The notes under the pieces are model-generated. The model saw only the letters and a list, made by a program, of their open reading frames with translations, had not been told where the DNA came from and searched no databases. A stretch of DNA of 64,000 bases from Escherichia coli (GTDB lineage Bacteria; Pseudomonadota; Gammaproteobacteria; Enterobacterales; Enterobacteriaceae): the NCBI RefSeq assembly GCF_003334785.1, contig NZ_QOWV01000008.1; one strand, given 5' to 3'. Shown piece after piece: positions 9,739-60,648 of this stretch. Within the stretch, counting starts at the first letter, position 1. Each line of letters opens with the position of its first letter. The position numbers and the translations under genes are program-made.

Positions 9739-12072
9739 TCAGGCTGTTGCAGGGTCGTCACATTTCGGCAGCCAGTCGCCGTAGCTTTCCTCTTTCAGCG
9801 TCAGGTTGGTCTGTATCCCCTGTTTGGTATGGCGCTTCTCGTAATTCAGTCCGTATTCCTTCAGCATCACCGGCAGCCCCAGCCCGAACATTTTCAGACT
9901 GAGTACATTCCGGTAGCCGTTTGCCTCCATGTAGGCCAGATAGGCGTGATAGAGGTATTTACGGTAATTACGCGGGATGATACTGGCGTTCCCCATATAC
10001 ATGCCGCTGGTCTGCGGCAGGGTTTCCAGATAGCCGATAAAATCAAACGTCGGGTCGGCATCCCGTTTGATGTTCAGTGCCTCGTCTGAGTTCTGCTGGG
10101 ACTGAAGCAGTGACCGGGCGAGCATCGGGTCGCTGAACTTCTGCATCAGGTAACGCACGATGACCGCCAGCTCGCGGGTGATTTTGTCCTTAAGCTGCGG
10201 GTCGCGCTCCTGCGGGGCTATCTGTTCCGGGAAGTGAATAATCACCCGCCGGCGTGACACGCCGCCGCTGCGGTCGGTGAAGCGCATCGGGTTATTGTTC
10301 ACGGCCAGAATCACCGCCGGGATGTGCGTGGAGTACGCATCCCGGTATTTCGGGTCAACGGACACCGCATCGCCGCCGGTGATGGCCTTGAGTCCGGCAC
10401 CGTCGCCGCTCCATTTTTCCTGGTCCGGCAGGCGTATCAGTGAGAAGCCAGTTAACGCGGCACGTTCACGCGGGGATTCCAGCGTCTCGATGGTGGCCGA
10501 CGTGGCGTTATCCTCACCGGCCAGCAGGGTGGCTATTTCGGCCATGATACTTTTGCCGCTGCCGCCGGGACCGGTCACCTCCAGAAAGAGCTGCCAGTCG
10601 TAGCGGTTTGCCAGCACCATAAACAGTGCGGCCAGAATCACGTCGCGTTTTTCCGCACGGCCACCGGCGGCACGGTCAAGCCAGCGCCAGAATGCGGGGG
10701 CGTGGGTTTCCAGCGTTTCACCTTCCACCGGCGGGGTGAAATCCACATCGCACAGGGCGCGCATCCAGTGTGACGGACTGTGCGGGTGGAACGTGCCGTT
10801 CTGCGTGTCGAGCACGCCGTTACGAAAGCCAATCAGGCGGCGGGAGGGGGCTTCCTGCTGCGGAATAATCAGCTTCAGGGTGTCCACCACGGAGGCCACC
10901 TTCCCGGAGGAGAACGGCGCGCGCAGACGCTGAAACAGCCCGGCCACATCCCGGGCAAAGTCCTGTGGTGGCAGCACCTTCCAGACACCATTTTCATAGC
11001 GGGACAGAAGCTGGCCGTTGGCATCGACCGCGAGCGCCTCGCCGTAATGCTCATAGATACGCATGGCCTTTTCGCTGGTACTCATGGCGGAAAACTCCGC
11101 TTCGCTCATGGTGTCGAACGGGCTTTCAGCCGGTGGCCGGATGGCATCATAAATGGCCTTACGGGTGGTTTCCCCGCCGTACTGCGTGAAGGCATCATTC
11201 CAGTCACCGAAGACCGGCGGCAGGGCAACAACGCCCTCACACGCATCTGCGGCTGCGGCGGCTTTTTTCTGGCCGTCACCGCTGAGGTCACGGTCTGCGG
11301 CAAGGACAATCTGACAGGCCGGATGCTTCTGCCGGGCAAGGCTGGCCAGAGAAAGGAGGTTCACGGAAGAAAGCGCCACCATCACCGTTTCACCGGTCAG
11401 GTGATGTACGGTAAGTGCGGTCGCGTATCCCTCCGCTATCCACAGACGTTTTCCGGCCTGATTCTGTCCTTCAAGGGTGTGACAGGTGCCCCTGACCTGT
11501 CCGCCTTTCAGGGTGCGCTTACGGCCGTCAGCACTGATTAACTGAAGGTTAACCAGTTCGCCGCTGTCGTCATACAGTGGCACCACAAGGTCACCGGCGC
11601 GCCAGCTCACGCCACCGGCTCTGTGTGTGCCGGTCAGCATCCGGCATTCCCGGCCGGGAAAGCCCTTGCGGGTCAGGTAGGCGTTACCGGTTCCGGGACG
11701 GGTTTTCGCCATCAGGGTTTGTGCCAGTGCGGCGGCGTTCTTCCGGGCGGCTTCTGTTTCAGCACCGGCGGCGGCCGTCACTGCCGGGTCAGCCGGGGGC
11801 AGGCAGCCGGTCACGGCAGCCACCTTTGCGGCCGCGTCGGACGGGGAAACACCAAACACCTTTTCAACCAGTTTCAGGCCGTCACCGGCACCACACTGAT
11901 TGCAGTACCAGGTGCCGCGCCCCTCCCTGTCATCAAAACGGAAACGGTCACTTCCGCCACAGACCGGACAGGGCTGATGACGGTTTTTCAGCACCTGAAT
12001 CCCCAGCGACGGGAGAATACGCGGCCAGTGGCCGAGCGCATGGCTGACGGTGGCGGTTACGTTCATTTTCAT
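9739..12072 (-). CDS. P4 alpha-type primase/helicase
   Basis: 777 aa, the size of P4 alpha; N-terminal CPVCGG...CNQCG zinc-binding primase motif; Walker A GPGGSGKS in C-terminal half. Confidence 0.9.
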   Translation of the reverse strand: MKMNVTATVSHALGHWPRILPSLGIQVLKNRHQPCPVCGGSDRFRFDDREGRGTWYCNQCGAGDGLKLVEKVFGVSPSDAAAKVAAVTGCLPPADPAVTAAAGAETEAARKNAAALAQTLMAKTRPGTGNAYLTRKGFPGRECRMLTGTHRAGGVSWRAGDLVVPLYDDSGELVNLQLISADGRKRTLKGGQVRGTCHTLEGQNQAGKRLWIAEGYATALTVHHLTGETVMVALSSVNLLSLASLARQKHPACQIVLAADRDLSGDGQKKAAAAADACEGVVALPPVFGDWNDAFTQYGGETTRKAIYDAIRPPAESPFDTMSEAEFSAMSTSEKAMRIYEHYGEALAVDANGQLLSRYENGVWKVLPPQDFARDVAGLFQRLRAPFSSGKVASVVDTLKLIIPQQEAPSRRLIGFRNGVLDTQNGTFHPHSPSHWMRALCDVDFTPPVEGETLETHAPAFWRWLDRAAGGRAEKRDVILAALFMVLANRYDWQLFLEVTGPGGSGKSIMAEIATLLAGEDNATSATIETLESPRERAALTGFSLIRLPDQEKWSGDGAGLKAITGGDAVSVDPKYRDAYSTHIPAVILAVNNNPMRFTDRSGGVSRRRVIIHFPEQIAPQERDPQLKDKITRELAVIVRYLMQKFSDPMLARSLLQSQQNSDEALNIKRDADPTFDFIGYLETLPQTSGMYMGNASIIPRNYRKYLYHAYLAYMEANGYRNVLSLKMFGLGLPVMLKEYGLNYEKRHTKQGIQTNLTLKEESYGDWLPKCDDPATA

Positions 12073-12998: not shown

Positions 12999-13857
12999 GC
13001 GTCCTGTCTCCCCGGTCTTTCTGCTGGGCGAGAAAATCGCGGCACAGGCCTTTGGCTTTCAGCTCATTCAGCACAAAATCAATATCTTCATTCAGGTAAC
13101 TGAAAATATGCGGAATGTAGAGCTGATGCAGGCCGGAGAGTTCACGGTGAATCAAATCACCCCCAACAAACTGGGATACGGCGCTGGCGCGGTTGAGCTT
13201 ATGGTAAGCCTCAATGCTGAGGTGTTCACGGGCGTCATGACGCGCTGAGACGGTCTGAGGGGCTTTTTTATTACGCACGGGACACCTCCACCACCGGCAG
13301 ACGGGCAGCAAGGGAGAGCACATAGTCACGGACAAGGGAACGGCGGGCGCTGCGTTCATCACCGGCGACGGTGCGAAGCATACAGATACGGGGATGACGG
13401 TCTGTGCGACGGACAGCCGCAAACACAAAGACAAATTCAGGGTGTGAGGGGGTAAGGGTTGTAGCCATGATGGCAGCCTCCTGTGAATAGCAAATAACGC
13501 TATCGCCGGAGTTCTCACGCTCGATGGCGATAGCCCAGACGGGGGTGAGAATACCGGCTTCACAGGATACCGGCCAGCCCGGAGGCTGCCCCGCCTGAGC
13601 TACCATTGACTCAGAGGCATAACATGCGATTGCGAACAGGATCATACCTGCACGGCAAACCACACGCCACACCATAATCTGGTGCTCTGTGGCGTTGATT
13701 GCGACACAAAAAAAGACGCATGGCGCGTCATATGTCGCCTGTGAATTGCTCGGGTTCTCACGCCCGGCTGCCGATTTTGCGGCAGCGGAAAAACTATATC
13801 CGCAAATGCCGGAAAAAGGCAAGCCAGAAAAAGGGAGTTTTTGCAGAGCGGGCATCA
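12999..13857 (-). other. P4-like immunity/early region with unresolved small ORFs
   Basis: Overlapping ORFs in several frames (12991..13563, 13271..13906, 12997..13248); only C-terminal parts look protein-like; position corresponds to P4 kil/cI-RNA/eps. Confidence 0.3.
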
Positions 13858-15981: not shown

Positions 15982-16554
15982 ATGGAAAGCACAGCCTTAC
16001 AGCAGGCCTTTGACACCTGTCAGAATAACAAAGCAGCATGGCTGCAACGCAAAAATGAGCTGGCTGCGGCCGAACAGGAATATCTGCGGCTTCTGTCAGG
16101 AGAAGGCAGAAACGTCAGTCGCCTGGACGAATTACGCAATATTATCGAAGTCAGAAAATGGCAGGTGAATCAGGCCGCCGGTCGTTATATTCGTTCGCAT
16201 GAAGCCGTTCAGCACATCAGCATCCGCGACCGGCTGAATGATTTTATGCAGCAGCACGGCACAGCACTGGCGGCGGCACTGGCACCGGAGCTGATGGGCT
16301 ACAGTGAGCTGACGGCCATTGCCCGAAACTGTGCCATACAGCGTGCCACAGATGCCCTGCGTGAAGCCCTTCTGTCCTGGCTTGCGAAGGGTGAAAAAAT
16401 TAATTATTCCGCACAGGATAGCGACATTTTAACGGCCATTGGATTCAGACCTGACGCGGCTTCGGTGGATGACAGCCGTGAAAAATTCACCCCTGCGCAG
16501 AACATGATTTTTTCGCGTAAAAGTGCGCAACTGGCATCACGTCAGTCTGTGTAA
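15982..16554 (+). CDS. psu: Psu polarity-suppression protein
   Basis: 190 aa, MESTALQQAFDTCQNNKAAWLQRKNELAAAEQEY..., recalled as P4 Psu. Confidence 0.8.
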   Translation: MESTALQQAFDTCQNNKAAWLQRKNELAAAEQEYLRLLSGEGRNVSRLDELRNIIEVRKWQVNQAAGRYIRSHEAVQHISIRDRLNDFMQQHGTALAAALAPELMGYSELTAIARNCAIQRATDALREALLSWLAKGEKINYSAQDSDILTAIGFRPDAASVDDSREKFTPAQNMIFSRKSAQLASRQSV

Positions 16555-16718: not shown

Positions 16719-16737
16719 GGCGAGGCGGGGAAAGCAC
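16719..16737. other. cos site (P2/P4-type 19-nt cohesive end)
   Basis: Exact ggcgaggcggggaaagcac, ~165 bp downstream of psu as in P4. Confidence 0.8.
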
Positions 16738-16979: not shown

Positions 16980-18269
16980 ATGAAAAAAAATGTTGGTAAC
17001 CGCAATAAAAATTCTGATGTGCTTATTCTTAAAGGTATGTTGAACAATTTAAAAGATGGTTTAAATAATTTTGAATTATTGCTTAAATTGCAGTTTAAAA
17101 TATTGGTGTGCGTGATGAGATGTGAGCGGAAAATTAAGTTTCTTAAAAAGAATAATGCTCATTTAAGGTCGGTGTTAAAAAAATCAAGACTTCCAAAAGA
17201 AAAATCTCTGGCAGTAAAAGAAAAAATTAAATACAATTCTGAAGTAATTACTGCTGAAAAATTCAAGATATATACGTATAAAATGTTTGGCGATGCTGTT
17301 GCATTTTTATACATCGATAAATATACAATTAAACAGTTATACTACAATGTACATAATTACAATGTTAAAGAAACGTCGGGGGATTTGAGCGGTAAGTCTG
17401 GATTGCGAGAGGAATGGGAATGCGTAAAACTTGCATGTGATAATAAAGTTCCAGCTCTGTTGCATGATATTACAATGAGTATAAGGCATGGAGATGTATC
17501 ACTTTTAGGTAAAGATGAGCCATTTATTATTGAGATGAAATCAAGCTCAAATACAAATAAGAGAGTTGAGCGGCAAAAATCTAACCTTGAAAAATTAGGA
17601 AGTTTCATAGCAAAAGACGAAGCTGAAAATTTTCGAGGGATTCCATTGTTAATCAGGAAAAATTTGTTAACTGAAGAGGAATCATATTCTCAGGTTTTAA
17701 ATGAGTGTCTTAATGATTGTCGCAGCAAAGGAATGGCTTTGGTTGAAGCTGAAAAAGGATTTTATATCTGCGCAGTTAGAGAAGGGAATATGGCTTCTAT
17801 GCTAGAAAATATAGATTTTGATGAAAAAAAAGAAGTTTTTCCTGTATTTCTCAATCAATATAAAAATAATGGGGAGTGGCTACCATTAACACCATTTACA
17901 CTATTAATTAACGATCCTTACGATCTCCATGATTTTATCGAAGGGGAATTAACAATAGCTTGTTTTTTAATGCTCGATGAATACAAAAAAATTGCTATAG
18001 AACTAGGCTATGAATTAGTTTTTGTTTCTAATGATGAATATAGTATCTTGTTAAAAAGAATTGGTGAAGATATTATATTTGGTGTTTCCTGGCAAATGTT
18101 GTTAAGAGTTCCATTAGAGATGATGTCCATGTCATGGTTGATAAAAGAAAGTATTAATATATATAGTAACTCCCTAGAAAATAGCACCCATAATGATGAA
18201 TTAAATCAGGGGCAGGGAAATACTAAAAATTCATTATTCGAAAAATACAAGAATTTATTTTCTTACTAA
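16980..18269 (+). CDS. hypothetical cargo protein A, possible PD-(D/E)xK nuclease
   Basis: ORF 16965..18269 (GTG) or ATG 16980; strongly AT-rich, Lys/Asn-rich; motif LHDITMSIRHGDVSLLGKDEPFIIEMK; no homologue recognised. Confidence 0.6.
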   Translation: MKKNVGNRNKNSDVLILKGMLNNLKDGLNNFELLLKLQFKILVCVMRCERKIKFLKKNNAHLRSVLKKSRLPKEKSLAVKEKIKYNSEVITAEKFKIYTYKMFGDAVAFLYIDKYTIKQLYYNVHNYNVKETSGDLSGKSGLREEWECVKLACDNKVPALLHDITMSIRHGDVSLLGKDEPFIIEMKSSSNTNKRVERQKSNLEKLGSFIAKDEAENFRGIPLLIRKNLLTEEESYSQVLNECLNDCRSKGMALVEAEKGFYICAVREGNMASMLENIDFDEKKEVFPVFLNQYKNNGEWLPLTPFTLLINDPYDLHDFIEGELTIACFLMLDEYKKIAIELGYELVFVSNDEYSILLKRIGEDIIFGVSWQMLLRVPLEMMSMSWLIKESINIYSNSLENSTHNDELNQGQGNTKNSLFEKYKNLFSY

Positions 18270-18301: not shown

Positions 18302-18335
18302 CAGGCTTGGACGGAATCATATAGCTCCAAGCCTG
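18302..18335. terminator. bidirectional hairpin between the convergent cargo genes
   Basis: caggcttgga (18302..18311) pairs with tccaagcctg (18326..18335); flanked by T-rich sequence. Confidence 0.5.
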
Positions 18336-18370
18336 TTGTGTCGGTATCAAAAAGAAAGTGATATTATTGT

Positions 18371-19744
18371 TTATCTAATATATTTTGTTACTTCCATATT
18401 ATCTTCATCGTCAAAAGAGTACTCAACCATCATACGACTATTTTTACCTGACTTAATATCTTGAAGCCAAGCTGAGGCAACCCTAGGGTCTAAATGCTGT
18501 TTTCTACTCAGCTCATTATTTTTTAGCCTATCAAGCCTTATTGCTCTTTGAAGAGTTTTATCGATGTAGTCTTCCAAATCAATGGACAACCTCCTTTTTG
18601 GATATAAATATTGGTATTCATCACACAATAGTACTCCTGGTAATTTAATTTCGCGTAGGTCGAAAGAATACCAACTATAGTTTTTAGACTCATTAGCTAA
18701 TTCCGAAACTAGATGAGCCCCATTTTGTTGTAAGAGAGATATTTTGTGATCGATGCTAATGTCAGATATTTCTCTTAAAGACTCAAAATGCATGTTTTCG
18801 TAGATAGTATTTAATAAAATACTCTCCATGTAAGAGTAAAAATCAGTACCATCGATGATAATATTAGTTTCATTGTAGACTGCAAGAGACATAAGATATA
18901 TGAAGAAAACTGCGGGAGTACTATTACCTCTGTTTATATCAAGTCTAAGGGAGTTGACATAATCAGGCGGAGAGTTTGAGAAAATTTCTCTTATTAACCA
19001 GTCTGGAATAGTGGTTCTTGTTAGAATGTCAGCGTTCAAACTTGAACGACATAAAAAAATACACATCTTTAATTTTAATTTTATTGAAAATGATGGGAAT
19101 AAATGATCGATGAAAGATAAAATACATGTATACTCTGCTAAGTCTGTTTGTTGCAACTTTTCTTTTATTTCATTTTCAAGCATTTTTAATTTAAAAAAAT
19201 CATTCCTTTTTTCTAATATTTCCCAATGAAATAATTGCTCCTGAGCGTACGCATGCCCCTCTAAAATAGCTAGCATGCTTAAAGGAATGTTTAGGATTTC
19301 TTGATAATTATTAACATACCCAAAGAAATGGACTCTGATATACACACCCATATCGTCATCATATTGTAATGATGCTTTAATATTTTTATAATTTAATTTA
19401 TTAGTGCTGTTGTTTTTGAAGTGATAATGTAAAGTAATTTCAGTATCATCAACTAATAAATTATCAAAAGCCTCCTTTGTTTCATATTTAAAATAGTTAT
19501 ATAGCCGACATGAATAATTTAACCCCCAGTGAGTTGTAGAACAATCAAGTAAATGGATTGTTTCATGGAGATATGTTTTATAAAATTCAATTTCGCTATC
19601 ATCAAAATCATATATGCTTTTACTGTCTATGATATTTTGTGCTTGCGGTAAACTTATATTTAATTCATCGTTTGAAATCTCAATTAAATGTGATGAAAAA
19701 TCATAAGAACCCAATGTTTTGCTGTTAAATATACATCCGCTCAT
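18371..19744 (-). CDS. hypothetical cargo protein B, HExxH motif (possible zinc metallopeptidase)
   Basis: 457 aa, AT-rich; N-terminal YLHETIHLLDCSTTH; start ATG overlaps the integrase stop (ATGA at 19741..19744). Confidence 0.6.
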   Translation of the reverse strand: MSGCIFNSKTLGSYDFSSHLIEISNDELNISLPQAQNIIDSKSIYDFDDSEIEFYKTYLHETIHLLDCSTTHWGLNYSCRLYNYFKYETKEAFDNLLVDDTEITLHYHFKNNSTNKLNYKNIKASLQYDDDMGVYIRVHFFGYVNNYQEILNIPLSMLAILEGHAYAQEQLFHWEILEKRNDFFKLKMLENEIKEKLQQTDLAEYTCILSFIDHLFPSFSIKLKLKMCIFLCRSSLNADILTRTTIPDWLIREIFSNSPPDYVNSLRLDINRGNSTPAVFFIYLMSLAVYNETNIIIDGTDFYSYMESILLNTIYENMHFESLREISDISIDHKISLLQQNGAHLVSELANESKNYSWYSFDLREIKLPGVLLCDEYQYLYPKRRLSIDLEDYIDKTLQRAIRLDRLKNNELSRKQHLDPRVASAWLQDIKSGKNSRMMVEYSFDDEDNMEVTKYIR

Positions 19745-20916
19745 AGCAAATCCCCTAAAAGATAATCAGAGTACCATTGAATCATCGTTTTCCTTTGAGA
19801 AAAATATTGTGCGTGATTATAGGTTCCTCGGATATTGTTCTTATCAACATGTGCTAATTGCATTTCAATCCAGGTACTATCAAATCCCTGTTCATGTAGG
19901 ATTGTTGACATTGTATGTCTAAAACCGTGACCTGTAGCACGTCCTTTGTAACCAAGTAACTCAATCACTTGTGAAACACTTTCTTTTGAAATTGGTTTGC
20001 TACGATTGTTCCTGCCAATAAAAATATAGGGATAATGGCCGGTGATAGGCTTTAGCTGTTTAAAGAGGTCTACCACCTGAGTAGACAAAGGTACAATATG
20101 TGGTCTGCGCATTTTCATACGTTCCGCTGGTATCTCCCATATACCTTTTTCGAGGTCTACTTCTTCCCACGTAGCAAAGCGCATCTCCTGCGTTCTTACA
20201 CCAGTCAGCATGACTATCTTCGTAGCATTTTTGGTGATGATGCTACCGGTATAAGCTTCGAGATCCCGAATAAAATGAGGCAATTCTTCGGCAGATAGAA
20301 ATGGATGATGTTTTTGCTTAGGAACGGCCAGAGCGATGGCTAAATCAGGCGCAGGATTGTATTCAGCGCGGCCAGTTATGATTGCGTAGCGATAAACCTC
20401 ACCGCACCTCTGACGTACCTTACGTGTTTTCTCTAGTGCTCCACGCTTCTCTATTCGTCGCAACACTTCAAGAAGTTCTAAGGGTTTGATTTCACTAATA
20501 GGACGTTTACCAATGAACGGGAAAACATCTTGCTCAAATGTTTTAATAATTTCTTCGCGGTAGGCAAGTGTCCAGCGATCGGCTTTATTTGAGTGCCACT
20601 CACGACATATAGCCTCGAATGAGTTTTCTGTTGAGAGCTGCTGTGCCAGCTTTTGGGCTTTACGTTCTTCCACTGGGTCTATGCCGTTTGCAACCTGCTT
20701 CCGAGCTGTATCGCGTTTCTCACGTGCTTCAGCTAGGCTCACAAGGTCGTAGCTACCAAATGACATTAACCGCGCTTTTCCGGCAAAGCGGAAACGGAAA
20801 CGCCAGCCCTTCGAGCCATCGGGATTGATAAGCAATGACAGGCCCTGCCCGTCGTTCAATGTGTATGGCTTGTCTTGGGGCTTTGCTCGTTTGATTTGTA
20901 TATCTGTAAGTGCCAT
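19741..20916 (-). CDS. int: P4-family tyrosine integrase
   Basis: 391 aa; N-terminus MALTDIQIKRAKPQDKPYTLNDGQGLSLLINPDGSKGWRFRFRFAGK typical of P4-type integrases; C-terminal catalytic region with HGFRHT...Y; adjacent to the tRNA. Confidence 0.9.
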   Translation of the reverse strand: MALTDIQIKRAKPQDKPYTLNDGQGLSLLINPDGSKGWRFRFRFAGKARLMSFGSYDLVSLAEAREKRDTARKQVANGIDPVEERKAQKLAQQLSTENSFEAICREWHSNKADRWTLAYREEIIKTFEQDVFPFIGKRPISEIKPLELLEVLRRIEKRGALEKTRKVRQRCGEVYRYAIITGRAEYNPAPDLAIALAVPKQKHHPFLSAEELPHFIRDLEAYTGSIITKNATKIVMLTGVRTQEMRFATWEEVDLEKGIWEIPAERMKMRRPHIVPLSTQVVDLFKQLKPITGHYPYIFIGRNNRSKPISKESVSQVIELLGYKGRATGHGFRHTMSTILHEQGFDSTWIEMQLAHVDKNNIRGTYNHAQYFSQRKTMIQWYSDYLLGDLL

Positions 20917-21073: not shown

Positions 21074-21098
21074 ATTTTGGCGGAAGATCACAGGAGTC
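21074..21098. repeat. attR core overlapping the 3' end of selC
   Basis: Same 25-nt sequence as 9249..9273. Confidence 0.85.
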
Positions 21099-21172
21099 GA
21101 ACCTGCCCGGGACCGCTGGCGGCCCCAACTGGATTTGAAGTCCAGCCGCCTCACCGGAGACGACGATCTTCC
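21078..21172 (-). tRNA. selC: tRNA-Sec (selenocysteine, UCA anticodon)
   Basis: Reverse complement reads ggaagatcgtcgtctccggtgaggcggctggacttcaaatccagttggggccgccagcggtcccgggcaggttcgactcctgtgatcttccgcca, the 95-nt E. coli selC sequence. Confidence 0.95.
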
Positions 21173-48854: not shown

Positions 48855-49201
48855 AATAAATAGCTGACTTATGGATGTGCTGGGGATTCTATGTATTTAG
48901 CACCGGGTTTGCCATTACTTTTCCTTTTTTTGACTTAATTAGCCTCTGTTTGAGCTGATCTGCCGCTAGATCTTCATTTTTTTTGTATTTTTATGCGATT
49001 CATTGAATTTCAGCCAGGATTGCAGCTTTACATCGACAATATCTGGATTCTCGAGTATGCAAAATTTTATCTCTATGATTTTTATAATTAAAACATATTT
49101 TGTGTATAAAAATCATTCGGGTCGGATTGCTGCGAAAGAAATGATACACTAGCGCGTCAAAGTAAGTGCGTTATCAGTATTCGGGTAGCTGTTGAGCCTG
49201 G

Positions 49202-49213
49202 GGCGGTAGCGTG
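49202..49213 (+). promoter_or_regulatory. ops element (RfaH recruitment) in the waaQ leader
   Basis: Exact ggcggtagcgtg ~50 bp upstream of the waaQ start. Confidence 0.8.
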
Positions 49214-49260
49214 CTTTTTTCTGCTTAACTTAACCAGACAATCACACAAAAGAGTCGCTA

Positions 49261-50331
49261 GTGGAAAAGCCATTTCGAAAAATCCTGGTCATAAAGATGC
49301 GATATCACGGAGATATGTTATTAACTACTCCTGTAATCAGTACACTCAAGCAGAATTATCCCGACGCAAAAATCGATATGCTGCTTTACCAGGATACAAT
49401 TCCGATTTTATCTGAAAACCCAGAAATTAATGCACTCTATGGTATAAGCAATAAAGGTACGGGAACATTCGATAAAATTAAAAATGCACTTTCACTGATA
49501 AAAACTCTGCGTGCGAATAATTACGACCTGGTCATTAATCTTACGGATCAGTGGATGGTGGCCCTGCTGGTACGTTGTTTACCTGCTCGTATGAAAATAT
49601 CGCAGCTTTATGGTCATCGGCAGCATGGCATTTGGAAAAAAAGCTTTACACACTTAGCGCCTATACACGGTACACATATTGTTGAGCGTAATTTGTCGGT
49701 CCTTGAGCCATTAGGTATTACCGATTTTTATACTGAAACAACCATGAGTTACGCCGAGGATTGCTGGAAGAAAATGCGCCAGGAATTAGATGCACTGGGC
49801 GTGAAAGATCATTATGTCGTCATCCAGCCGACAGCCAGACAGATATTTAAGTGCTGGGACAACGATAAATTTTCTATGGTTATCGATGCGTTGCAACATC
49901 GTGGTTATCAGGTTGTGCTGACTTGTGGCCCTTCGGCAGATGATCTCGCTTGCGTAGATGAAATTGCACGAGGCTGCCAAACAAAACCTATTACCGGCCT
50001 TGCCGGTAAAACACGTTTTCCTGAACTGGGCGCATTAATTGATCATGCAGTGCTCTTTATTGGTGTGGATTCTGCGCCGGGGCATATTGCAGCGGCTGTG
50101 AAGACGCCAGTTATTAGCCTGTTTGGGGCCACTGATCATGTATTCTGGCGTCCATGGACCGAGAATATTATTCAGTTCTGGGCGGGGAATTATCAAAAAA
50201 TGCCTACCCGGCACGAACTTGACCGCAACAAAAAATATCTTTCTGTTATTCCAGCGGAAGATGTCATTGCCGCTACGGAAAAGCTGTTGCCAGAAGATGC
50301 ACCTTCAGCTGACAGGAATGCGCAATTATGA
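49261..50331 (+). CDS. waaQ: LPS heptosyltransferase III (GT9)
   Basis: 356 aa from GTG; FRKILVIKMRYHGDMLLTTPV aligns with N-termini of WaaC/WaaF. Confidence 0.8.
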   Translation: MEKPFRKILVIKMRYHGDMLLTTPVISTLKQNYPDAKIDMLLYQDTIPILSENPEINALYGISNKGTGTFDKIKNALSLIKTLRANNYDLVINLTDQWMVALLVRCLPARMKISQLYGHRQHGIWKKSFTHLAPIHGTHIVERNLSVLEPLGITDFYTETTMSYAEDCWKKMRQELDALGVKDHYVVIQPTARQIFKCWDNDKFSMVIDALQHRGYQVVLTCGPSADDLACVDEIARGCQTKPITGLAGKTRFPELGALIDHAVLFIGVDSAPGHIAAAVKTPVISLFGATDHVFWRPWTENIIQFWAGNYQKMPTRHELDRNKKYLSVIPAEDVIAATEKLLPEDAPSADRNAQL

Positions 50332-51452
50332 TCGTGGCATTTTGCTTATATAAATATTTTCCATTTGGTGGGCTACAGCGTGACTTTATGCGTATTGCCT
50401 CAACAGTTGCCGCACGGGGCCACCATGTTCGGGTATATACACAGTCGTGGGAAGGCGATTGCCCGGAAGCATTTGAGCTTATTCGCGTACCGGTTAAATC
50501 CCATACTAACCATGGACGTAATGCAGAATATTATGCCTGGGTTCAAAACCATCTGAAGGCACATCCCGCTGATCGCGTTGTTGGCTTTAATAAGATGCCT
50601 GGGCTGGATGTTTATTTTGCCGCCGATGTCTGTTATGCCGAGAAAGTGGCGCAAGAAAAGGGATTTTTCTATCGTTTAACATCGCGCTATCGCCATTATG
50701 CTGCATTCGAGCGAGCGACTTTCGAACATGGTAAATCGACGAAACTTATGATGTTGACCGATAAGCAAATCGCCGATTTTCAGAAGCATTACCAAACTGA
50801 ACCAGAACGTTTTCAAATTCTTCCCCCTGGTATCTATCCTGACAGAAAATACAACGCGCAAATCCCAAACAGTCGTGAAATTTATCGCCAGAAAAATGGC
50901 ATCACTGAACAACAAAACTTATTGCTGCAGGTTGGTTCAGATTTTGGTCGTAAAGGTGTGGATCGCTCAATTGAAGCTTTGGCATCGTTACCAGAATCGT
51001 TACGCCATAATACGTTGTTGTTTGTTGTTGGCCAGGATAAACCGCGTAAATTTGAAGTGCTGGCAGAAAAACTCGGTGTGCGTAGTAAAGTGCATTTCTT
51101 TTCCGGGCGGAATGATGTGTCTGAATTAATGGCAGCCGCTGATTTATTAATGCATCCCGCTTATCAGGAGGCTGCAGGTATTGTTCTCCTTGAGGCAATT
51201 GCCGCGGGATTACCTGTGTTGACGACTGCGGTATGCGGATACGCACACTATATCACAGATGCTAATTGTGGAACGGTCATCGCTGAACCTTTCTCCCAGG
51301 AACAATTAAATGACGTTTTACGTAAAGCGTTAACTCAATCTCCATTGCGCATGGCCTGGGCGGAGAATGCTCGGTATTACGCCGATACTCAGGATTTATA
51401 CAGCCTGCCGGAGAAAGCGGCAGATATCATTACAGGTGGTTTAGATGGTTGA
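50328..51452 (+). CDS. waaG: LPS glucosyltransferase I (GT4)
   Basis: 374 aa, GT4 E-x7-E motif, position after waaQ. Confidence 0.85.
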
Positions 51453-52242
51453 ATTAGAAGAGCCACTTGCCACACTCTGGCGTGGTAAAGATGCCTTTGC
51501 AGAAGTTAAAAAACTGAATGGCGAGGTCTTCCGTGAACTGGAGACGCGTCGCACATTACGCTTTGAACTGGCCGGCAAAAGTTATTTCCTCAAATGGCAC
51601 AAAGGGACGACCCTAAAGGAGATTATAAAAAATCTGCTCTCATTGCGGATGCCCGTTTTAGGTGCAGACAGAGAGTGGCACGCTATTCATCGACTGCATG
51701 ATGTCGGTGTTGATACGATGCACGGAATAGGATTTGGTGAAAAAGGGTTAAATCCATTAACTCGCACATCATTTATTATTACCGAAGATCTCACTCCCAC
51801 AATTAGCCTTGAAGATTATTGTGCAGATTGGGCGGTCAACCCGCCTGATGTACATATTAAGCGTATGCTGATCGCGCGTGTGGCAACCATGGTGCGCAAA
51901 ATGCATGCAGCAGGGATTAATCACCGTGATTGTTATATCTGCCACTTTTTACTCCATTTGCCATTTACTGGCCGGGAAGATGAATTAAAAATTTCGGTTA
52001 TCGATCTGCACCGGGCACAGATACGTGCAAAAGTACCACGTCGTTGGCGGGATAAAGATTTGATTGGTTTATATTTCTCATCAATGAATATTGGTCTGAC
52101 GCAGAGAGATATCTGGCGATTTATGAAGGTTTATTTTGGGATGCCTTTACGCGATATTTATAGACTTGAGATTGATTTACTTAAAAAGGCAAGGATTAAA
52201 GCAGGAAAAATAGAAGCAAGAACAATAAGAAAAAACTTGTAA
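51445..52242 (+). CDS. waaP: LPS core heptose(I) kinase
   Basis: 265 aa kinase-like protein, overlaps waaG stop. Confidence 0.85.
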
Positions 52243-52274
52243 ATAGTATTTTATTACAAAAAGGGATTCTAAAA

Positions 52275-53255
52275 TTGTTGAAATATAGAAACTTCGTTGC
52301 TAAGAAGAAAAATTTATACCAAAACGAAGTGTCGTATGTTAAAAATTTACATATTGCACTATGCTTTGACCGTGAATTCATAATGCCAGCGGGTGTTGCA
52401 TTATATTCAATTATATCCAACAATAGACATATTAACCTTCATTTTCACCTTCTTATATCAGGCATAGAAGAAAAGGAGTGTTCAGCTTTTTACGAACTAG
52501 AAGGTCCTAATACATCAATATCTGTATATTATATAACTGATAAATTTGACATTAATCCGGATACATTAGTTCTTGGTATTCCTTTATCAACATGTTTACG
52601 TTTTTTAATCCCAGAAGTTATTGATGATAAAATAAATAAGATACTTTATCTTGACTGTGATGTCATATGTAATGGTCCTTTAGATGAACTGGTTGATTAT
52701 AATTTAAATGCTGATATTGCATGTGTAATTCCAGATTCGCCAGAAATGCAAGAACGTGTAAAAAAATTAGACTATGGCATTGAGTTTATTAATTATTTTA
52801 ATGCCGGGGTTATGTTTATTAATACCAGCGAATGGAAAAAAAATAATATAACACAAAAAGCGTTAGAAATGATCAACAGTGGAAAAGTATATAGGTATGC
52901 AGATCAGGATGTGCTCAATATTTTACTTAATGGACGAGTGCATTACCTTGATAAGAAGTACAATAATAAGACAACATTGTCAGTACGATGTGATGAAGAA
53001 CAAAAAAACTTGCCCAACACAATTATAATGCATTATGTTACCCAGAATAAACCATGGTACAAAATATTTAGAGCACAAAATTTTGATCATTATTTTTCAA
53101 ATTCTCCTTGGAAGAACCATAAAAGAAATCTAGCTCCATCATCAAGTGAGATTAGGTTAAAGTCTAAAGTTTTTTGGCTAGAAGGAAAATATTGTAAAGC
53201 CATTTCTTATTATTATAAGTATTTACTTGTTAAATTATTTGGCTTAAAGATTTAG
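52275..53255 (+). CDS. GT8-family LPS core glycosyltransferase (waaS position)
   Basis: 326 aa, AT-rich; GT8 motifs YLDCDVIC, FNAGVMFIN, HYVTQNKPW; identity within the waa family not resolved. Confidence 0.6.
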   Translation: MLKYRNFVAKKKNLYQNEVSYVKNLHIALCFDREFIMPAGVALYSIISNNRHINLHFHLLISGIEEKECSAFYELEGPNTSISVYYITDKFDINPDTLVLGIPLSTCLRFLIPEVIDDKINKILYLDCDVICNGPLDELVDYNLNADIACVIPDSPEMQERVKKLDYGIEFINYFNAGVMFINTSEWKKNNITQKALEMINSGKVYRYADQDVLNILLNGRVHYLDKKYNNKTTLSVRCDEEQKNLPNTIIMHYVTQNKPWYKIFRAQNFDHYFSNSPWKNHKRNLAPSSSEIRLKSKVFWLEGKYCKAISYYYKYLLVKLFGLKI

Positions 53256-53268
53256 CTGGAATGAAATT

Positions 53269-54348
53269 ATGAAAATAGCCTTTATTGGCGAAGCTGTTTC
53301 TGGATTTGGCGGCATGGAAACAGTCATTCGTGATGTTATTACTACCTTCAGGCAACAACATATCCAAAGTGAAATTTTTTTCTTTTGTCGTAATGACAAA
53401 ATGGATAAGGGATGGCTGGAAGGTATTAAGTACTCGTGTTCATTTTCCAATATTCGCTTAGGTTTTTTGCGTCGCGCGAAACATATTCATGCTTTAAGCA
53501 AATGGCTTCATGATTATCAGCCAGATGTTGTTATTTGTATTGACGTGATCTCGTGTTTGTATGCGGCCAAAGCTCGTAAAAAATCGGGGATTGATGTACC
53601 TGTATTTTCATGGCCGCATTTTTCTTTAGATCATAAAAAACATGCCGAATATATCACCTGTGCCGACTATCATTTAGCCATCAGCTCTGGTATTAAACAG
53701 CAAATGATTAGCCGGGGTGTACCAGAATCGACAATAAACGTTATTTTTAATCCCGTTGAGGCGAAAAATTCAGTCATTCCTGCACCCGGGGAAGGCGAAA
53801 CGGCAACATTCATTTATGTTGGGCGCATGAAATTTGAAGGCCAAAAGCGCGTAAAAGATCTGCTTGATGGCTTATCACAAGTGCAAGGTGACTGGAAACT
53901 TCATGTATTGGGAGATGGCTCCGATTTCGAAAAATGCCAGGCTTATGGTAGAGGATTAAATATTGATGATCGAATTGTCTGGTATGGTTGGCAACAACAT
54001 CCCTGGAAATTAGTTCAGCAAGATATTAAAAAAGTGAGTGCATTATTACTCACGTCATCTTTTGAAGGTTTCCCAATGACTCTACTTGAAGCCTTGTCGT
54101 GGGGGATCCCTTGTATCAGTGCAGATTGTGTCTCCGGGCCTGTTGATATCATTCAGCCTGATGTTAATGGTCATTTATATCAACCGGGGGATATGACCGG
54201 TTTTGTTGCTCTTCTCAATAAATACATAGCCGGTGAAATTCACATCGCACATGAAAAAATTCCGGCGTCGATCGATAAATTTTATCAACCGAAATATTAC
54301 GACAGATTGCAAAAGATAATTATTTCTGTTATTTCCCGGAGGAAATAA
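53269..54348 (+). CDS. waaB: LPS 1,6-galactosyltransferase (GT4)
   Basis: 359 aa MKIAFIGEAVSGFGGMETVIRDVITTFRQQ, recalled as WaaB. Confidence 0.8.
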   Translation: MKIAFIGEAVSGFGGMETVIRDVITTFRQQHIQSEIFFFCRNDKMDKGWLEGIKYSCSFSNIRLGFLRRAKHIHALSKWLHDYQPDVVICIDVISCLYAAKARKKSGIDVPVFSWPHFSLDHKKHAEYITCADYHLAISSGIKQQMISRGVPESTINVIFNPVEAKNSVIPAPGEGETATFIYVGRMKFEGQKRVKDLLDGLSQVQGDWKLHVLGDGSDFEKCQAYGRGLNIDDRIVWYGWQQHPWKLVQQDIKKVSALLLTSSFEGFPMTLLEALSWGIPCISADCVSGPVDIIQPDVNGHLYQPGDMTGFVALLNKYIAGEIHIAHEKIPASIDKFYQPKYYDRLQKIIISVISRRK

Positions 54349-55367
54349 TGCAGCAGGTTTTTTTCCAGGAGACTGAGTTTCTCAATTCGGTTATTGATTA
54401 TAATCATAAAATAGAAGCAGAAAATCTTTGTCTGGATATTGCTTATGGGACTGACAAAAATTTTCTTTTTGGATGCGGAATATCGATTGCTTCAATATTA
54501 AAATATAATGAAGGAAATCAATTATGCTTTCATATTTTTACTGATTATTTCGGTGATGACGATCGCAAATATTTTGATGCCCTGGCCAGGCAATATAAAA
54601 CAAGAATTAAGATATATTTAATTAATGGTGATCGACTCCGTTCATTACCCTGCACCAAGAACTGGACTCATGCTATTTATTTTCGTTTTGTTATCGCCGA
54701 TTACTTTTTTAATAAAGCACCCAAAGTTCTTTATCTGGATGCAGATATTATTTGTCAGGGAACTATAGAACCACTTATCAATTACACGTTTTCTGAACAT
54801 ACAGTCGCAATGGTTGTTACAGAAGGACAAAAAGACTGGTGGGCAAAACGTGCTCATTCGTTAGGTGTTGCTGGGATTGCTAATGGTTACTTTAACTCCG
54901 GTTTTTTACTGATTAATACTAATCAATGGACGAATGAGCGGGTTTCTGCACGGGCCATTGCAATGTTAAGTGATCCAGAGATAGTCAAAAAAATAACACA
55001 TCCTGATCAGGATGTATTAAATATGTTATTGGCAGACAAACTTGTTTATGCTGATATTAAATATAACACTCAGTTTAGTTTAAATTATCAACTAAAAGAA
55101 AGTTTTAAAAACCCAGTAACTAACGATACAGTTTTTATTCATTATATTGGTCCAACTAAACCCTGGCATGACTGGGCCTGGGATTATCCAATATCACAAG
55201 CTTTTATGGCGGCAAAAAATGCTTCACCATGGAAGGATACTGCGTTATTGAAACCGGTTAATAGTAATCAATTAAGATACAGTGCTAAACATATGTTGAA
55301 AAAAAAGCAATATATCAAAGGATTTGGCAACTATCTTTTGTATTTTATAAAAAAGCTAAAGCATTAA
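54348..55367 (+). CDS. waaO: LPS alpha-1,3-glycosyltransferase (GT8), WaaO/WaaI type
   Basis: 339 aa, GT8 motifs YLDADIIC, FNSGFLLIN, HYIGPTKPW; follows waaB. Confidence 0.65.
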   Translation: MQQVFFQETEFLNSVIDYNHKIEAENLCLDIAYGTDKNFLFGCGISIASILKYNEGNQLCFHIFTDYFGDDDRKYFDALARQYKTRIKIYLINGDRLRSLPCTKNWTHAIYFRFVIADYFFNKAPKVLYLDADIICQGTIEPLINYTFSEHTVAMVVTEGQKDWWAKRAHSLGVAGIANGYFNSGFLLINTNQWTNERVSARAIAMLSDPEIVKKITHPDQDVLNMLLADKLVYADIKYNTQFSLNYQLKESFKNPVTNDTVFIHYIGPTKPWHDWAWDYPISQAFMAAKNASPWKDTALLKPVNSNQLRYSAKHMLKKKQYIKGFGNYLLYFIKKLKH

Positions 55368-55530
55368 TACTGATAATCTATACTCTAAATAATTCGAGTT
55401 GCAGGACAAAAAGCCAGTGGCGTTTTGAGGAACGCTTGCGTTGGCCCTGAAATGCCGAGTAACTCGCCGATGCAGCACATGCAACTTGAAGTATAACGAG
55501 TATATAAAGTAATGATATAAGGATAGCCTT

Positions 55531-56547
55531 GTGAACTCATTTCCTGCCATAGAGATAGATAAAGTTAAAGCCTGGGATTTTAGGCTTATTGATGAAAATA
55601 CTGCTGAAAGTTTAAATGTTGCCTATGGTGTCGATTCCAATTATCTTGATGGTGTAGGTGTTTCCATTACTTCAATTGTCATTAATAATCGACATGTTAA
55701 TCTTGATTTTTATATTATTGCTGATGTTTATAACGACGATTTCTTTCAAAAAGTTGAGAAACTTGCTGAGCAATACCAATTAAGAATCACACTTTATAGA
55801 ATAAATACTGATAATCTTCAGTGCCTGCCTTGTACACAAGTCTGGTCAAGAGCAATGTACTTCCGTTTATTTGCTTTTCAATTATTGGGAGTAACACTTA
55901 ATCGTTTGCTTTATCTTGATGCCGATGTAGTTTGTAAGGGAAATATTAGTCAACTATTGCATTTAGAGTTTAATGGAGCGGTGGCTGCAGTAGTCAGGGA
56001 TGTAGACCCAATGCAGGAAAAGGCGGTAGTCAGATTATCTGATCCTGAACTTCGGGGGCAGTATTTTAATTCTGGTGTCGTTTACTTAGACCTAAAAAAA
56101 TGGACAGAAGCAAAACTAACCGAAAAAGCACTGTCTATTCTTATGAGTAAAGATAGTATTTATAAGTATCCTGACCAGGACGTTATGAATGTCCTACTAA
56201 AAGGGATGACAATATTCCTGCCACGTGAGTTCAATACTATATATACAATAAAAAGTGAGTTAAAAGATAAAACGCATCAAAAATATAAAGAGTTGATAAA
56301 AGAGGATACTCTTCTTATTCATTATACTGGGGCCACCAAGCCGTGGCACAAATGGGCAATTTATCCATCGGTAAAATACTATAAAATAGCTTTAGAAAGA
56401 TCCCCCTGGAAAGATGACTCACCACGAGATGCAAAATCAATTATTGAATTCAAAAAAAGATATAAACATCTGTTAGTGCAACATCATTATATCTCAGGAC
56501 TCATTGCAGGAGTGTGTTATCTTTGCCGAAAATATTACCGTAAATAA
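55531..56547 (+). CDS. waaJ: LPS alpha-1,2-glycosyltransferase (GT8), WaaR/WaaJ type
   Basis: 338 aa, GT8 motifs YLDADVVC, FNSGVVYLD, HYTGATKPW. Confidence 0.6.
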   Translation: MNSFPAIEIDKVKAWDFRLIDENTAESLNVAYGVDSNYLDGVGVSITSIVINNRHVNLDFYIIADVYNDDFFQKVEKLAEQYQLRITLYRINTDNLQCLPCTQVWSRAMYFRLFAFQLLGVTLNRLLYLDADVVCKGNISQLLHLEFNGAVAAVVRDVDPMQEKAVVRLSDPELRGQYFNSGVVYLDLKKWTEAKLTEKALSILMSKDSIYKYPDQDVMNVLLKGMTIFLPREFNTIYTIKSELKDKTHQKYKELIKEDTLLIHYTGATKPWHKWAIYPSVKYYKIALERSPWKDDSPRDAKSIIEFKKRYKHLLVQHHYISGLIAGVCYLCRKYYRK

Positions 56548-56564
56548 CATTTAACTGGTTTAAC

Positions 56565-57263
56565 ATGATTCAGAAGAATAAAATCAAAGATTTAGTTGTT
56601 TTTACCGATGAAAATAACTCAAAGTATCTCAATGTATTAAATGACTTTCTTTCTTATGATATTAATATCATCAAAGTTTTTCGTTCTATAGATGATACAA
56701 AAGTCATGCTTATTGATACCGATTACGGTAAATTGATACTTAAAGTTTTTTCGCCTAAAGTAAAACGCAACGAACGTTTCTTTAAATCTCTTTTAAAGGG
56801 AGATTATTATGAACGCCTTTTTGAGCATACTCAAAAAGTGCGTAACGAGGGGCTACATTCTCTCAATGATTTTTATTTGTTGGCAGAACGGAAAACATTA
56901 CGTTTTGTCCATACTTATATCATGCTTATCGAATATATCGATGGCGTAGAGTTGTGTGATATCCCCGATATTGATGAAACTTTAAAAAATAAAATTCAAC
57001 AATCAATTCGTTCATTACACGAACACGGTATGGTATCTGGTGATCCTCACCGCGGTAATTTTATTATTGAAAATGGTGAAGTACGCATTATTGATCTTTC
57101 AGGAAAACGGGCATCTGCACAACGTAAAGCGAAAGATCGTATTGATTTAGAGCGACATTATGGTATTAAGAATGAGGTTAAAGATCTCGGTTATTATCTT
57201 TTAGTTTATCGTAAAAAAATACGTAATCTTATGCGGCGTTTGAAAGGGAAGCCAGCACGATAA
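56565..57263 (+). CDS. waaY: LPS core heptose(II) kinase
   Basis: 232 aa, kinase-like (GDPHRGNFII), position. Confidence 0.75.
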   Translation: MIQKNKIKDLVVFTDENNSKYLNVLNDFLSYDINIIKVFRSIDDTKVMLIDTDYGKLILKVFSPKVKRNERFFKSLLKGDYYERLFEHTQKVRNEGLHSLNDFYLLAERKTLRFVHTYIMLIEYIDGVELCDIPDIDETLKNKIQQSIRSLHEHGMVSGDPHRGNFIIENGEVRIIDLSGKRASAQRKAKDRIDLERHYGIKNEVKDLGYYLLVYRKKIRNLMRRLKGKPAR

Positions 57264-57334
57264 AGTAAAAGTCTTACATTTAAACGTCTTCGTCAGGACA
57301 TTTCTATGCGGAGTTCTTATTTCACAGGTTTATC

Positions 57335-58144
57335 ATGAAGAATATTAGATACATTGACAAAAAAGATGTTGAAAACCTGATAGAAAGTAAAACGTCTGAT
57401 GATGTTATTATTTTTCTTTCCGGCCCCACATCGCAAAAAACACCATTGTCAGTGCTGCAGACAAGGGATGTTATTGCTGTCAATGGTTCTGCACAATATC
57501 TATTAAGTCATAATATTATTCCCTATATTTATGTACTTACCGATGTTCGCTTTTTACATCAACGGCGTGATGATTTTTATAAATTTAGCCAGAGAAGTCG
57601 TTATACCATCGTAAATGTTGACGTTTATGAACATGCTTCTGAAGAAGATAAGCGGTACATCCTTCAAAACTGCCTGGTACTACGTTCATTTTACCGCAGA
57701 GAAAAAGGTGGATTGATCAAGAAGATCAAGTTTAATATTTTGAGCCGAATTCATAAAGAGCTCCTGATCTCTGTACCTTTTTCTAAAAAAGGTCGTCTGG
57801 TTGGCTTTTGCAAGGATATTAACCTCGGTTATTGTTCATGCCATACCGTTGCTTTTGCTGCAATCCAAATAGCCTATTCGCTGAAGTATGCTCGTATTAT
57901 CTGTTCAGGCCTTGATTTAACGGGTAGCTGTTCGCGTTTCTATGATGAAGATAAGAATCCTATGCCCTCAGAGTTGATTCGGGATTTATTCAAAATTTTA
58001 CCATTTTTCCGTTTTATGCGTGAAAATATAGAAGATATCAATATTTATAATTTATCCGACGATACTGCAATTCAATATGATATTATTCCCTATATGAAAA
58101 TATCCGAAATTGAAGAGCCGTGTGTTTATGAAAAAATAAGCTAA
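57335..58144 (+). CDS. waaZ: LPS core biosynthesis protein (WaaZ position)
   Basis: 269 aa, AT-rich, between waaY and the terminal GT4 gene. Confidence 0.55.
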   Translation: MKNIRYIDKKDVENLIESKTSDDVIIFLSGPTSQKTPLSVLQTRDVIAVNGSAQYLLSHNIIPYIYVLTDVRFLHQRRDDFYKFSQRSRYTIVNVDVYEHASEEDKRYILQNCLVLRSFYRREKGGLIKKIKFNILSRIHKELLISVPFSKKGRLVGFCKDINLGYCSCHTVAFAAIQIAYSLKYARIICSGLDLTGSCSRFYDEDKNPMPSELIRDLFKILPFFRFMRENIEDINIYNLSDDTAIQYDIIPYMKISEIEEPCVYEKIS

Positions 58145-58196
58145 TATTTTATATGTGTTTATTACGTGTTATAAATTATATTGGAGTTGGCTAATA

Positions 58197-59339
58197 ATGA
58201 TTAAAAAAATAATATTTACCGTCACACCAATATTTTCTATACCGCCAAAAGGAGCTGCAGCGGTTGAAACATGGATTTATCAGGTCGCAAAAAGACTTTC
58301 GATTCCAGTAACTATCGCCTGTATTCGAAACGAAGGTTACCCAACCTACACAAAAGTAAATGATCACTGTGATATTCACTACATTGGTTTTAGTCGAGTC
58401 TATAAACGACTTTTCCAAAAGTGGACTCGACTTGATCCTGTGCCATATTCTCAGCGTATTTTAAATACCCAACCTAAAAACACTGATCCGAAAGACTCTG
58501 TTATTGTTATCCACAATAGCATGAAGCTGTATAAACAGATTCGTAGCAGAAGCCCTCACGCGCAGCTAGTTATGCATCTTCATAATGCTTTCGAGCCAGG
58601 TGAGTTAGACAAAAATGCAAAGATAATTGTTCCTAGCCAGTTTCTTTTCGATTTCTATTCGGAAAAAATGCCTGATGCAAATATTGCTATTGTGCCTAAT
58701 GGTTTTTGTTCTGAATCGTATGAACAAAATAATACTGAAGATTTGAGGCAGAAACTGAACATTGATGCAAATGATACCGTGTTATTATTTGCAGGAAGGA
58801 TATCACCAGATAAAGGTTGCCTGATGCTTATGGAGGCTTTTAATCAGCTGAATAAGATACAAGATAACCTCAAACTGGTGATTGTCGGAGATCCTTTTGC
58901 CAGTAAAAAAGGCGAAAAAGCTGAATATCAGAAAAAAGTTCTGGATGCAGCGAAAGCTATTGGAGCGCAATGCATTATGGCGGGTGGACAGCCTCCAGAG
59001 CAGATGCATAACTATTACCGTTTAGCAGATTTAGTTGTTGTTCCTTCTCAGGTAGAAGAAGCTTTTTGTATGGTAGCTGTTGAAGCGATGGCGGCAGGTA
59101 AACCAGTGCTTGCCAGTCAAAAAGGTGGAATTAGTGAGTTTGTTCTGGAAGGAATTACAGGCTATCACCTTGCAGAGCCTATGACATCTGAAAGTATTCT
59201 CGCGGATATTAAGCGCGTTTTGGCGGATGCTGACAGAGCTCAAATTGCTAAAAATGCCCGAAATTTTGTTTTCTCAAAATATAGCTGGGAACATGTTACT
59301 CAGCGTTTTGAAGCACAAATACAAGACTGGTTTGGTTAA
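58197..59339 (+). CDS. waaK: GT4 glycosyltransferase, WaaK-like
   Basis: 380 aa from ATG 58197 (GGAG upstream); GT4 E-x7-E motif EAFCMVAVEAMAAGKPV; last gene before waaL. Confidence 0.6.
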   Translation: MIKKIIFTVTPIFSIPPKGAAAVETWIYQVAKRLSIPVTIACIRNEGYPTYTKVNDHCDIHYIGFSRVYKRLFQKWTRLDPVPYSQRILNTQPKNTDPKDSVIVIHNSMKLYKQIRSRSPHAQLVMHLHNAFEPGELDKNAKIIVPSQFLFDFYSEKMPDANIAIVPNGFCSESYEQNNTEDLRQKLNIDANDTVLLFAGRISPDKGCLMLMEAFNQLNKIQDNLKLVIVGDPFASKKGEKAEYQKKVLDAAKAIGAQCIMAGGQPPEQMHNYYRLADLVVVPSQVEEAFCMVAVEAMAAGKPVLASQKGGISEFVLEGITGYHLAEPMTSESILADIKRVLADADRAQIAKNARNFVFSKYSWEHVTQRFEAQIQDWFG

Positions 59340-59357
59340 AAATTATTGGATTTGAAG

Positions 59358-60610: not shown

Positions 60611-60648
60611 TGCTTCTCCACCATCTTAAATAATATATAACGTATTAA

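Follow-up and report, generated by a model that had tools for sequence, protein, structure and literature searches.

Introduction

Nucleases that consist of a single protein and are carried in hotspots of phages and satellites have already yielded new immune mechanisms and enzymes. Shedu (SduA, DUF4263/PF14082), found in defence islands, is a single-protein PD-(D/E)xK nuclease that assembles as a homotetramer and is restrained by its own N-terminal domain (bioRxiv 10.1101/2023.08.10.552793). ZwsA, a stand-alone defence RNase of the NERD type (PF08378), is likewise a single-protein effector, and its E-D-ExK residues are required for protection. Bandua and Aernus, two previously unannotated loci that protect against phages (bioRxiv 10.64898/2026.02.27.708500, hereafter the 2026 preprint), sit in the psu-int interval of P4 satellites, a published hotspot for anti-phage systems (Rousset et al. 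2022, PMC9122126). Here we describe gene A, which lies in this interval of a P4-like satellite at ∼9.7-20.9 kb of a 64,000-nucleotide stretch of Escherichia coli chromosome (contig NZ_QOWV01000008.1; 'the window'). We propose, with a probability of roughly 0.6, that the product of gene A is a nuclease that is complete in one polypeptide and most likely serves in anti-phage defence. Fold and logic are familiar; the novelty lies in the gene A family itself, in a C-terminal domain that matches nothing in PDB or Pfam, and in an occurrence that spans P2 as well as P4 hotspots.

A PD-(D/E)xK-type motif is conserved in the gene A family

The features of gene A on which the argument rests are the following.

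16980 to 18269, + strand: gene A, a stand-alone protein of predicted PD-(D/E)xK fold, 429 amino acids (open reading frame; RefSeq coding sequence with identical ends)
17070 to 17312, + strand: N-terminal Lys-rich antiparallel helical hairpin, residues 31-111 (AlphaFold2, conservation and Lys content)
17352 to 17684, + strand: predicted nuclease core, residues 125-235, restriction-endonuclease-like alpha-beta-beta-beta-alpha-beta
17412 to 17414, + strand: codon of E145, the invariant Glu of the first core helix (motif I), aligned with the Glu of Hjc 'KGSAVE'
17460 to 17540, + strand: segment translating exactly to LHDITMSIRHGDVSLLGKDEPFIIEMK, residues 161-187, which holds D163, T165, R169, D172, P181, E185 and K187
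17493 to 17495, + strand: codon of D172, the invariant Asp that starts beta2, equivalent to 'PD' (GD here) and aligned with the 'PD' Asp of Hjc
17532 to 17540, + strand: codons of E185-M186-K187, the invariant ExK that ends beta3, aligned with Hjc 'IEMKS'
17574 to 17576, + strand: codon of Q199, an invariant Gln in the helix after beta3 (with R195 and R198)
17685 to 18149, + strand: conserved C-terminal alpha/beta domain, residues 236-390

The ATG at 16980 yields the 429-residue form that RefSeq records as WP_000742539.1, 'hypothetical protein'; an alternative GTG upstream, at 16965, would yield 434 residues. The original prediction for this gene, which cited the peptide at 17460-17540, had claimed a PD-(D/E)xK-like nuclease signature and had proposed motif conservation among homologues, as well as an AlphaFold model with structure comparison, as ways to check it. 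Taken alone in this single sequence, the bare D...[DE]xK pattern does not beat chance and proves little (36% of composition-preserving shuffles of the protein contain a D-x(8-30)-hydrophobic-[DE]xK match); the motif stands beyond chance because it is conserved across homologues. An exhaustive search of proteins clustered at 50% identity returned 540 cluster representatives at E≤1e-3 and 434 at E≤1e-10, and a word-indexed search 12 clusters only. The relatives are mostly ∼400 amino acids long, align with gene A end to end, and occur mainly in Proteobacteria and across many bacterial groups. In an alignment of 91 sequences (mean column identity 28%, most members being 24-35% identical to gene A) only eight columns are invariant, namely G134, G141, E145, T165, D172, E185, K187 and Q199, and all eight fall in residues 134-199. 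D163, R169, G171, P181 and R195 are conserved to at least 90%. Both residues of the ExK, E185 and K187, are thus present in 91/91 sequences, and the claimed signature gains support from the invariant E145/D172/E185/K187 set together with the predicted fold and the Hjc alignment described below.

This pattern also bears on whether the core might be catalytically dead, the protein serving as a nucleic-acid binder or scaffold. Inactivated PD-(D/E)xK domains are known, but a full catalytic set kept invariant over 91 highly diverged sequences is the opposite of what such a domain would show, and we regard a dead core as highly improbable.

Gene A and its relatives escape the standard models. Pfam gives no match to gene A even at E≤10, PADLOC matches it with 0 families at E≤1, NCBIfam matches neither gene A nor its relatives, and none of the three resources recognises the family. 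The sole match in PHROGs is phrog_14906, annotated 'unknown function', and neither gene A nor a profile of the whole family retrieved anything but coiled-coil noise from PDB sequences.

Predicted structure of the gene A protein

An AlphaFold2 model computed with the 91-sequence alignment has a mean predicted local distance difference test (pLDDT) score of 93.2 and a predicted template modelling (pTM) score of 0.92, and it falls into three parts: a helical hairpin, the core, and a second alpha/beta region that extends to ∼383 and is followed by C-terminal helices. The restriction-endonuclease-like core that structure comparison had been expected to reveal is present in this model. It is built from helix 141-154 (carrying E145), strand 159-161, strand 173-177 (with D172 just before it), strand 179-184 (followed by E185-x-K187), helix 194-212 (with R195, R198 and Q199) and strand 214-218. 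The predicted alpha-beta-beta-beta-alpha-beta core, with an acidic residue at beta2, (D/E)xK on beta3 and a Glu on helix 1, argues for membership of the PD-(D/E)xK superfamily.

A comparison of the core-only profile with PDB lent the fold independent support: the best matches were Hjc resolvases, at non-significant E-values of 0.25-0.5; in Pfam, too, the core gave only a weak match to Hjc (i-Evalue 0.24). In the core-profile alignment E145, D172, E185 and K187 fall on the catalytic Glu, 'PD' Asp and ExK of Hjc, and the D-x12-ExK spacing agrees with that of the Hjc catalytic residues. The alignment thus assigns the predicted role of catalytic Asp to D172, which precedes E185 by 13 residues, and not to an Asp ∼20 residues upstream. 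The acidic residue that the original prediction had placed about 20 residues before E-x-K does have a counterpart in D163, conserved in 90/91 sequences, but it is D172 that takes the catalytic position; D163, being nearly invariant, may be an additional ligand of the site.

Directly before the catalytic helix lies a glycine-rich loop, K130-x3-G134-x3-G138-K139-x-G141 (17367-17402, residues 130-141), in which K130 and K139 are conserved to more than 90% alongside the invariant G134 and G141. The loop is P-loop-like but not a canonical Walker A motif, being shorter by one residue and showing no conservation at the position after its Lys.

The hairpin is formed by helices 31-68 and 73-111 (pLDDT ∼98), and Q38, E49 and G104-D105 are conserved in this region. 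Lys makes up 19% of residues 1-110 against 10.7% overall, which bears out the description of the N-terminal ∼100 residues as Lys-rich. As to the accompanying suggestion of a coiled-coil-like N-terminus, the model shows a long antiparallel helical hairpin, and profile searches gave weak coiled-coil-type matches only. In the C-terminal domain E258, G260, N292, K295, P305, F319, R376, E380 and S383 are conserved. A profile of this domain returned noise only from PDB and Pfam, with no relatives detected, and the idea that it is a duplicated nuclease domain was discarded (hhalign probability 0.5%).

Structural comparison of the core ranked Hna (5.9), the nickase N.BspD6I (5.8), VRR-NUC (5.6), Hjc (5.4) and NgoMIV (5.4) highest, followed by AF1548, DUF820, tRNA-splicing endonuclease, Cap4, NucS, FAN1, HamA, Card1, TnsA, EcoRI and FokI; these scores are modest and span 60-80 residues, as expected of so small and divergent a core. 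A Foldseek search of AFDB50 found ∼200 relatives at TM scores of 0.85-0.98, nearly all 'uncharacterized', a few of which carry the UniProt names Nuclease, NERD or DUF4263.

It is because of these structural neighbours that DNA is the likelier substrate. The alternative, a defence nuclease with RNA as its target (transcripts of the phage, RNA genomes or tRNA), draws on the NERD protein ZwsA, which cleaves the genomes of RNA phages. We consider it unlikely, given that the top neighbours are mostly DNA enzymes (Hjc, VRR-NUC, the nickase, NgoMIV, NucS and FAN1) and that none of the other domains of ZwsA (VHS, DUF647, S4) occurs in gene A.

Comparison with described nucleases

The archaeal Hjc resolvases (PF01870; PDB 1hh1, 1gef, 1ob8, 2wcw) act as dimers and consist of the core alone in 120-145 amino acids, whereas gene A carries two extra domains in its 429; the similarity, being non-significant, does not place gene A in the Hjc family, and its context is one of defence hotspots, not of recombination genes. 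NERD nucleases share with gene A a motif of the type GD ... hhhE-h-K at similar spacing. Pfam yielded no NERD match for gene A (E≤10), for the 91 relatives (E≤0.1) or for the core-only set, and ZwsA further differs in its VHS, DUF647 and S4 domains, to which the flanking domains of gene A are unrelated, and in cleaving RNA. Akin to Shedu, gene A would be a single-protein PD-(D/E)xK nuclease, and one of its AFDB homologues is labelled DUF4263; yet Pfam found no DUF4263 in gene A or its relatives and PADLOC no SduA model (E≤1), and the nuclease domain, C-terminal in the Shedu homotetramer, is central in gene A (125-235), with a 155-residue domain after it.

Bandua and Aernus share both the P4 hotspot and the effector superfamily with gene A (bioRxiv 10.64898/2026.02.27.708500). 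Pfam, which misses gene A, detects their nucleases (NERD PF08378; DUF4365 + AbiGii), and these come paired or fused with kinase or MtlR-like parts. We also asked whether the 2026 preprint had already tested gene A as one of its P4 'unknown' loci: its six named systems are built from other domains, two unnamed negative loci could still correspond to it, and eight short strings (five from gene A and three guessed back-translations) had no match in the synthesised-sequence and supplementary files. The nucleases of Hna, Hachiman HamA and CBASS Cap4 come with helicases or SAVED sensors, either as fusions or as partners; gene A lacks both, and END nucleases (PLD + iEndoIII), considered as possible relatives, proved unrelated. 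A literature search that included the RefSeq accessions found no paper naming gene A. By analogy, gene A would act in the manner of single-protein nucleases already established in defence, namely Shedu, NERD effectors and the Bandua and Aernus nucleases; failed hidden Markov model tests and a different domain order set it apart from NERD, DUF4263 and Hjc.

On the mechanism that we propose, a core whose catalytic residues (E145, D172 and E185-x-K187, with Q199 in addition) resemble those of Hjc and NERD enzymes would be held between the N-terminal antiparallel hairpin and the conserved C-terminal alpha/beta domain, one or both of which would restrain the nuclease or choose its substrate. Gating of the active site by these flanking parts is, by analogy with Shedu, the most likely form of control. 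Infection would be the trigger for metal-dependent cleavage of nucleic acid, most likely DNA, directed either at phage DNA (restriction-like) or at DNA indiscriminately (abortive). What the analysis itself shows is the gene, its conserved motif, the predicted fold, its modularity as a single gene and the defence-type surroundings; catalytic activity, substrate, trigger, regulation by the flanking domains and an anti-phage phenotype are what we infer.

Gene A is cargo of a P4 hotspot

The following features define the satellite and its hotspot.

9739 to 12072, − strand: primase of the P4-like satellite (PHROG)
13523 to 13610, − strand: C4 immunity RNA (Rfam)
15982 to 16554, + strand: Psu (polarity suppression), the upstream hotspot landmark (PHROG 6366, E 7e-101; RefSeq annotation)
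16719 to 16737, + strand: cos sequence GGCGAGGCGGGGAAAGCAC, 19 nucleotides, the upstream edge of the cargo (exact match, 0 expected by chance)
18303 to 18337, no strand assigned: 11-bp perfect inverted repeat ACAGGCTTGGA ... TCCAAGCCTGT, within the 101 bp that separate the stop codons of genes A and B (read from the sequence)
18371 to 19744, − strand: gene B, 457 amino acids, WP_001406847.1, with an invariant HExxH
19741 to 20916, − strand: P4-type tyrosine integrase, the downstream hotspot edge (PHROG integrase; RefSeq annotation)
21078 to 21172: tRNA-Sec, the satellite attachment site beside the integrase

Gene A thus lies between psu/cos and int, with tRNA-Sec beyond, as cargo of the P4 hotspot does. 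Directly after the P2/P4 cos sequence GGCGAGGCGGGGAAAGCAC the GC content falls from ∼48-52% to 31% and stays low until the integrase (cargo 31%, flanking satellite DNA 48-62%). This low-GC interval holds two convergent open reading frames, A on the + strand (16980-18269) and B on the − strand (18371-19744). The immunity region of the satellite appears intact, with Rfam placing the P4 immunity RNA C4, its a1/b1 target and isrK at 13523-13799 (− strand). Further satellite genes (PHROG) comprise an AlpA-like excisionase and a Psu-like gene, then Delta, then Psu; the Psu-like gene before Delta is probably Sid.

Homologues of gene A lie among defence genes

We fetched 63 homologue loci from 100,044 species genomes and compared all open reading frames within 5 kb all-against-all. 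No conserved neighbour emerged, as no neighbour family was common to more than 3 of the 63 loci. In the gpA-portal hotspot of P2-like prophages (Serratia, Citrobacter and E. coli) homologues occur without gene B: in Citrobacter the homologue is the sole cargo between gpA and portal, in Serratia it adjoins a 456-amino-acid open reading frame (locus L001, 9771-11141), and in E. coli a 243-amino-acid open reading frame and a DUF3850 protein (L075, 3985-5603). These three neighbours, for which PADLOC gave no matches, are further cargo of the P2 hotspot with no assigned function. In Pluralibacter gergoviae (L003/L012) an intact gene A at 91% identity, again without B, stands in a degraded P4 remnant with a Psu fragment and a truncated integrase, which suggests that gene A was retained after the satellite decayed.

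The family is therefore found in both the P4 psu-int and the P2 gpA-Q hotspots, at ∼50% protein identity (window against L002, L075 and L076). A 2026 preprint reports that P2 and P4 almost never swap defence genes; the divergence fits old, independent acquisitions, not recent exchange. The allele of the window occurs in 10/5426 complete E. coli genomes and a ∼65%-identical P2-borne version in 17 more; members of the family are present on 17 viral contigs of IMG/VR, and tblastn against the isolated phage genomes of INPHARED gave no match to gene A.

Most homologues lie outside recognisable P2/P4 elements and beside defence genes, adjoining genes of Dsr1, Gabija, Lamassu, Shango and Ppl. PADLOC models were matched by 12 of 19 large genes flanking distant homologues, a proportion that is indicative only, the 19 having been chosen by size. 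Dsr1, SngC and PDC-M49A were matched at full length; GajA, LmuB, Ppl, SspH and a type IIG restriction-modification enzyme were also matched, and PDC-S37/MkoA-like, RecD-like helicase, PycC-like and SMC-like ATPase proteins more weakly.

These distributions speak to a role in the upkeep of the mobile element, as a housekeeping or structure-specific nuclease (a junction resolvase, or a helper of replication or packaging) and not in immunity. Such a role would accord with carriage of gene A by satellites and prophages and with the Holliday-junction resolvase Hjc as its closest pattern in sequence and structure. It is nonetheless very unlikely in our estimation: gene A sits in variable hotspots and not in the conserved backbone, satellites of the same type manage without it, its occurrence among complete E. 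coli genomes is sporadic in both alleles, and most homologues keep the company of defence genes outside such elements. In light of its setting and conservation, gene A is a credible candidate for single-gene phage defence.

Gene B is not a conserved partner of gene A

Gene B carries two invariant motifs, HExxH (H60, E61, H64) and the block EGHAYAQE (162-169), and this sequence pattern suggests a zinc metallopeptidase-like site. It found no match in PADLOC, NCBIfam, Pfam or PDB, including searches of the last two with a gene B profile. Only 6 clusters of relatives were found among 5.8 billion proteins, and a profile search returned the same 6. Relatives occur without gene A: one, in Vibrio parahaemolyticus, is part of a cassette array and has an AbiP2 reverse transcriptase (DRT) and a PD-T4-6-like kinase as neighbours, and another, in Idiomarina, adjoins a Tn7-like transposon. 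The 456-amino-acid neighbour in Serratia, considered as a possible homologue of B, is unrelated to it.

Genes A and B could form one two-gene system, in which A would be the nuclease effector and B, as an HExxH metallopeptidase-like protein, its sensor or regulator. Two diverged P4 lineages keep both genes in the same convergent layout and at a similar degree of divergence (74% identity for A and 73% for B), and both are present in 10/10 E. coli genomes with this cargo. Every other gene A locus examined is without B, however, be it in P2 hotspots, the 63 diverse loci or the Pluralibacter remnant, and B occurs without A in the Vibrio array and beside the Tn7-like element; moreover, each of the two convergent genes has its own promoter, and several independent systems commonly share one P4 hotspot. 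A joint system is quite unlikely on this evidence, and co-occurrence led us to reject B as an obligate partner. Because no neighbour is conserved in the 63 loci and B occurs alone elsewhere, gene A is a single-gene module and not half of an A+B system. Gene B, itself very rare, is probably a defence candidate in its own right.

A wider interpretation, which we hold tentatively and at a little under even odds, is that gene A is the first recognised member of a widespread family (∼540 clusters) of unnamed single-gene anti-phage nucleases, that its hairpin and C-terminal domain, both specific to this family, control the Hjc/NERD-like core as a new infection sensor or autoinhibitor, and that B is a second independent new defence gene, carried elsewhere as an integron-type cassette. 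The family is large and occupies classical defence islands as well as the P2 and P4 hotspots. Because Pfam, NCBIfam and PADLOC miss it, annotation at present calls such loci 'defence-less'. If gene A is a defence nuclease, defence catalogues would gain a detectable single-gene system, and the protein would offer a compact model for the control of a minimal Hjc-like core by flanking domains, with a role for the C-terminal domain; if it is not, the locus stays a well-described hypothetical nuclease.

Other features of the window

The inverted repeat between genes A and B is a possible bidirectional terminator, judging from its sequence; a simple scan for terminators missed it, and Rfam found no RNA family within the cargo region. 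Away from the satellite, a JUMPstart element at 49175-49213 precedes ∼10 co-directional open reading frames of 31-40% GC (region 49175-61605), a run that looks like a polysaccharide or lipopolysaccharide-core type operon.
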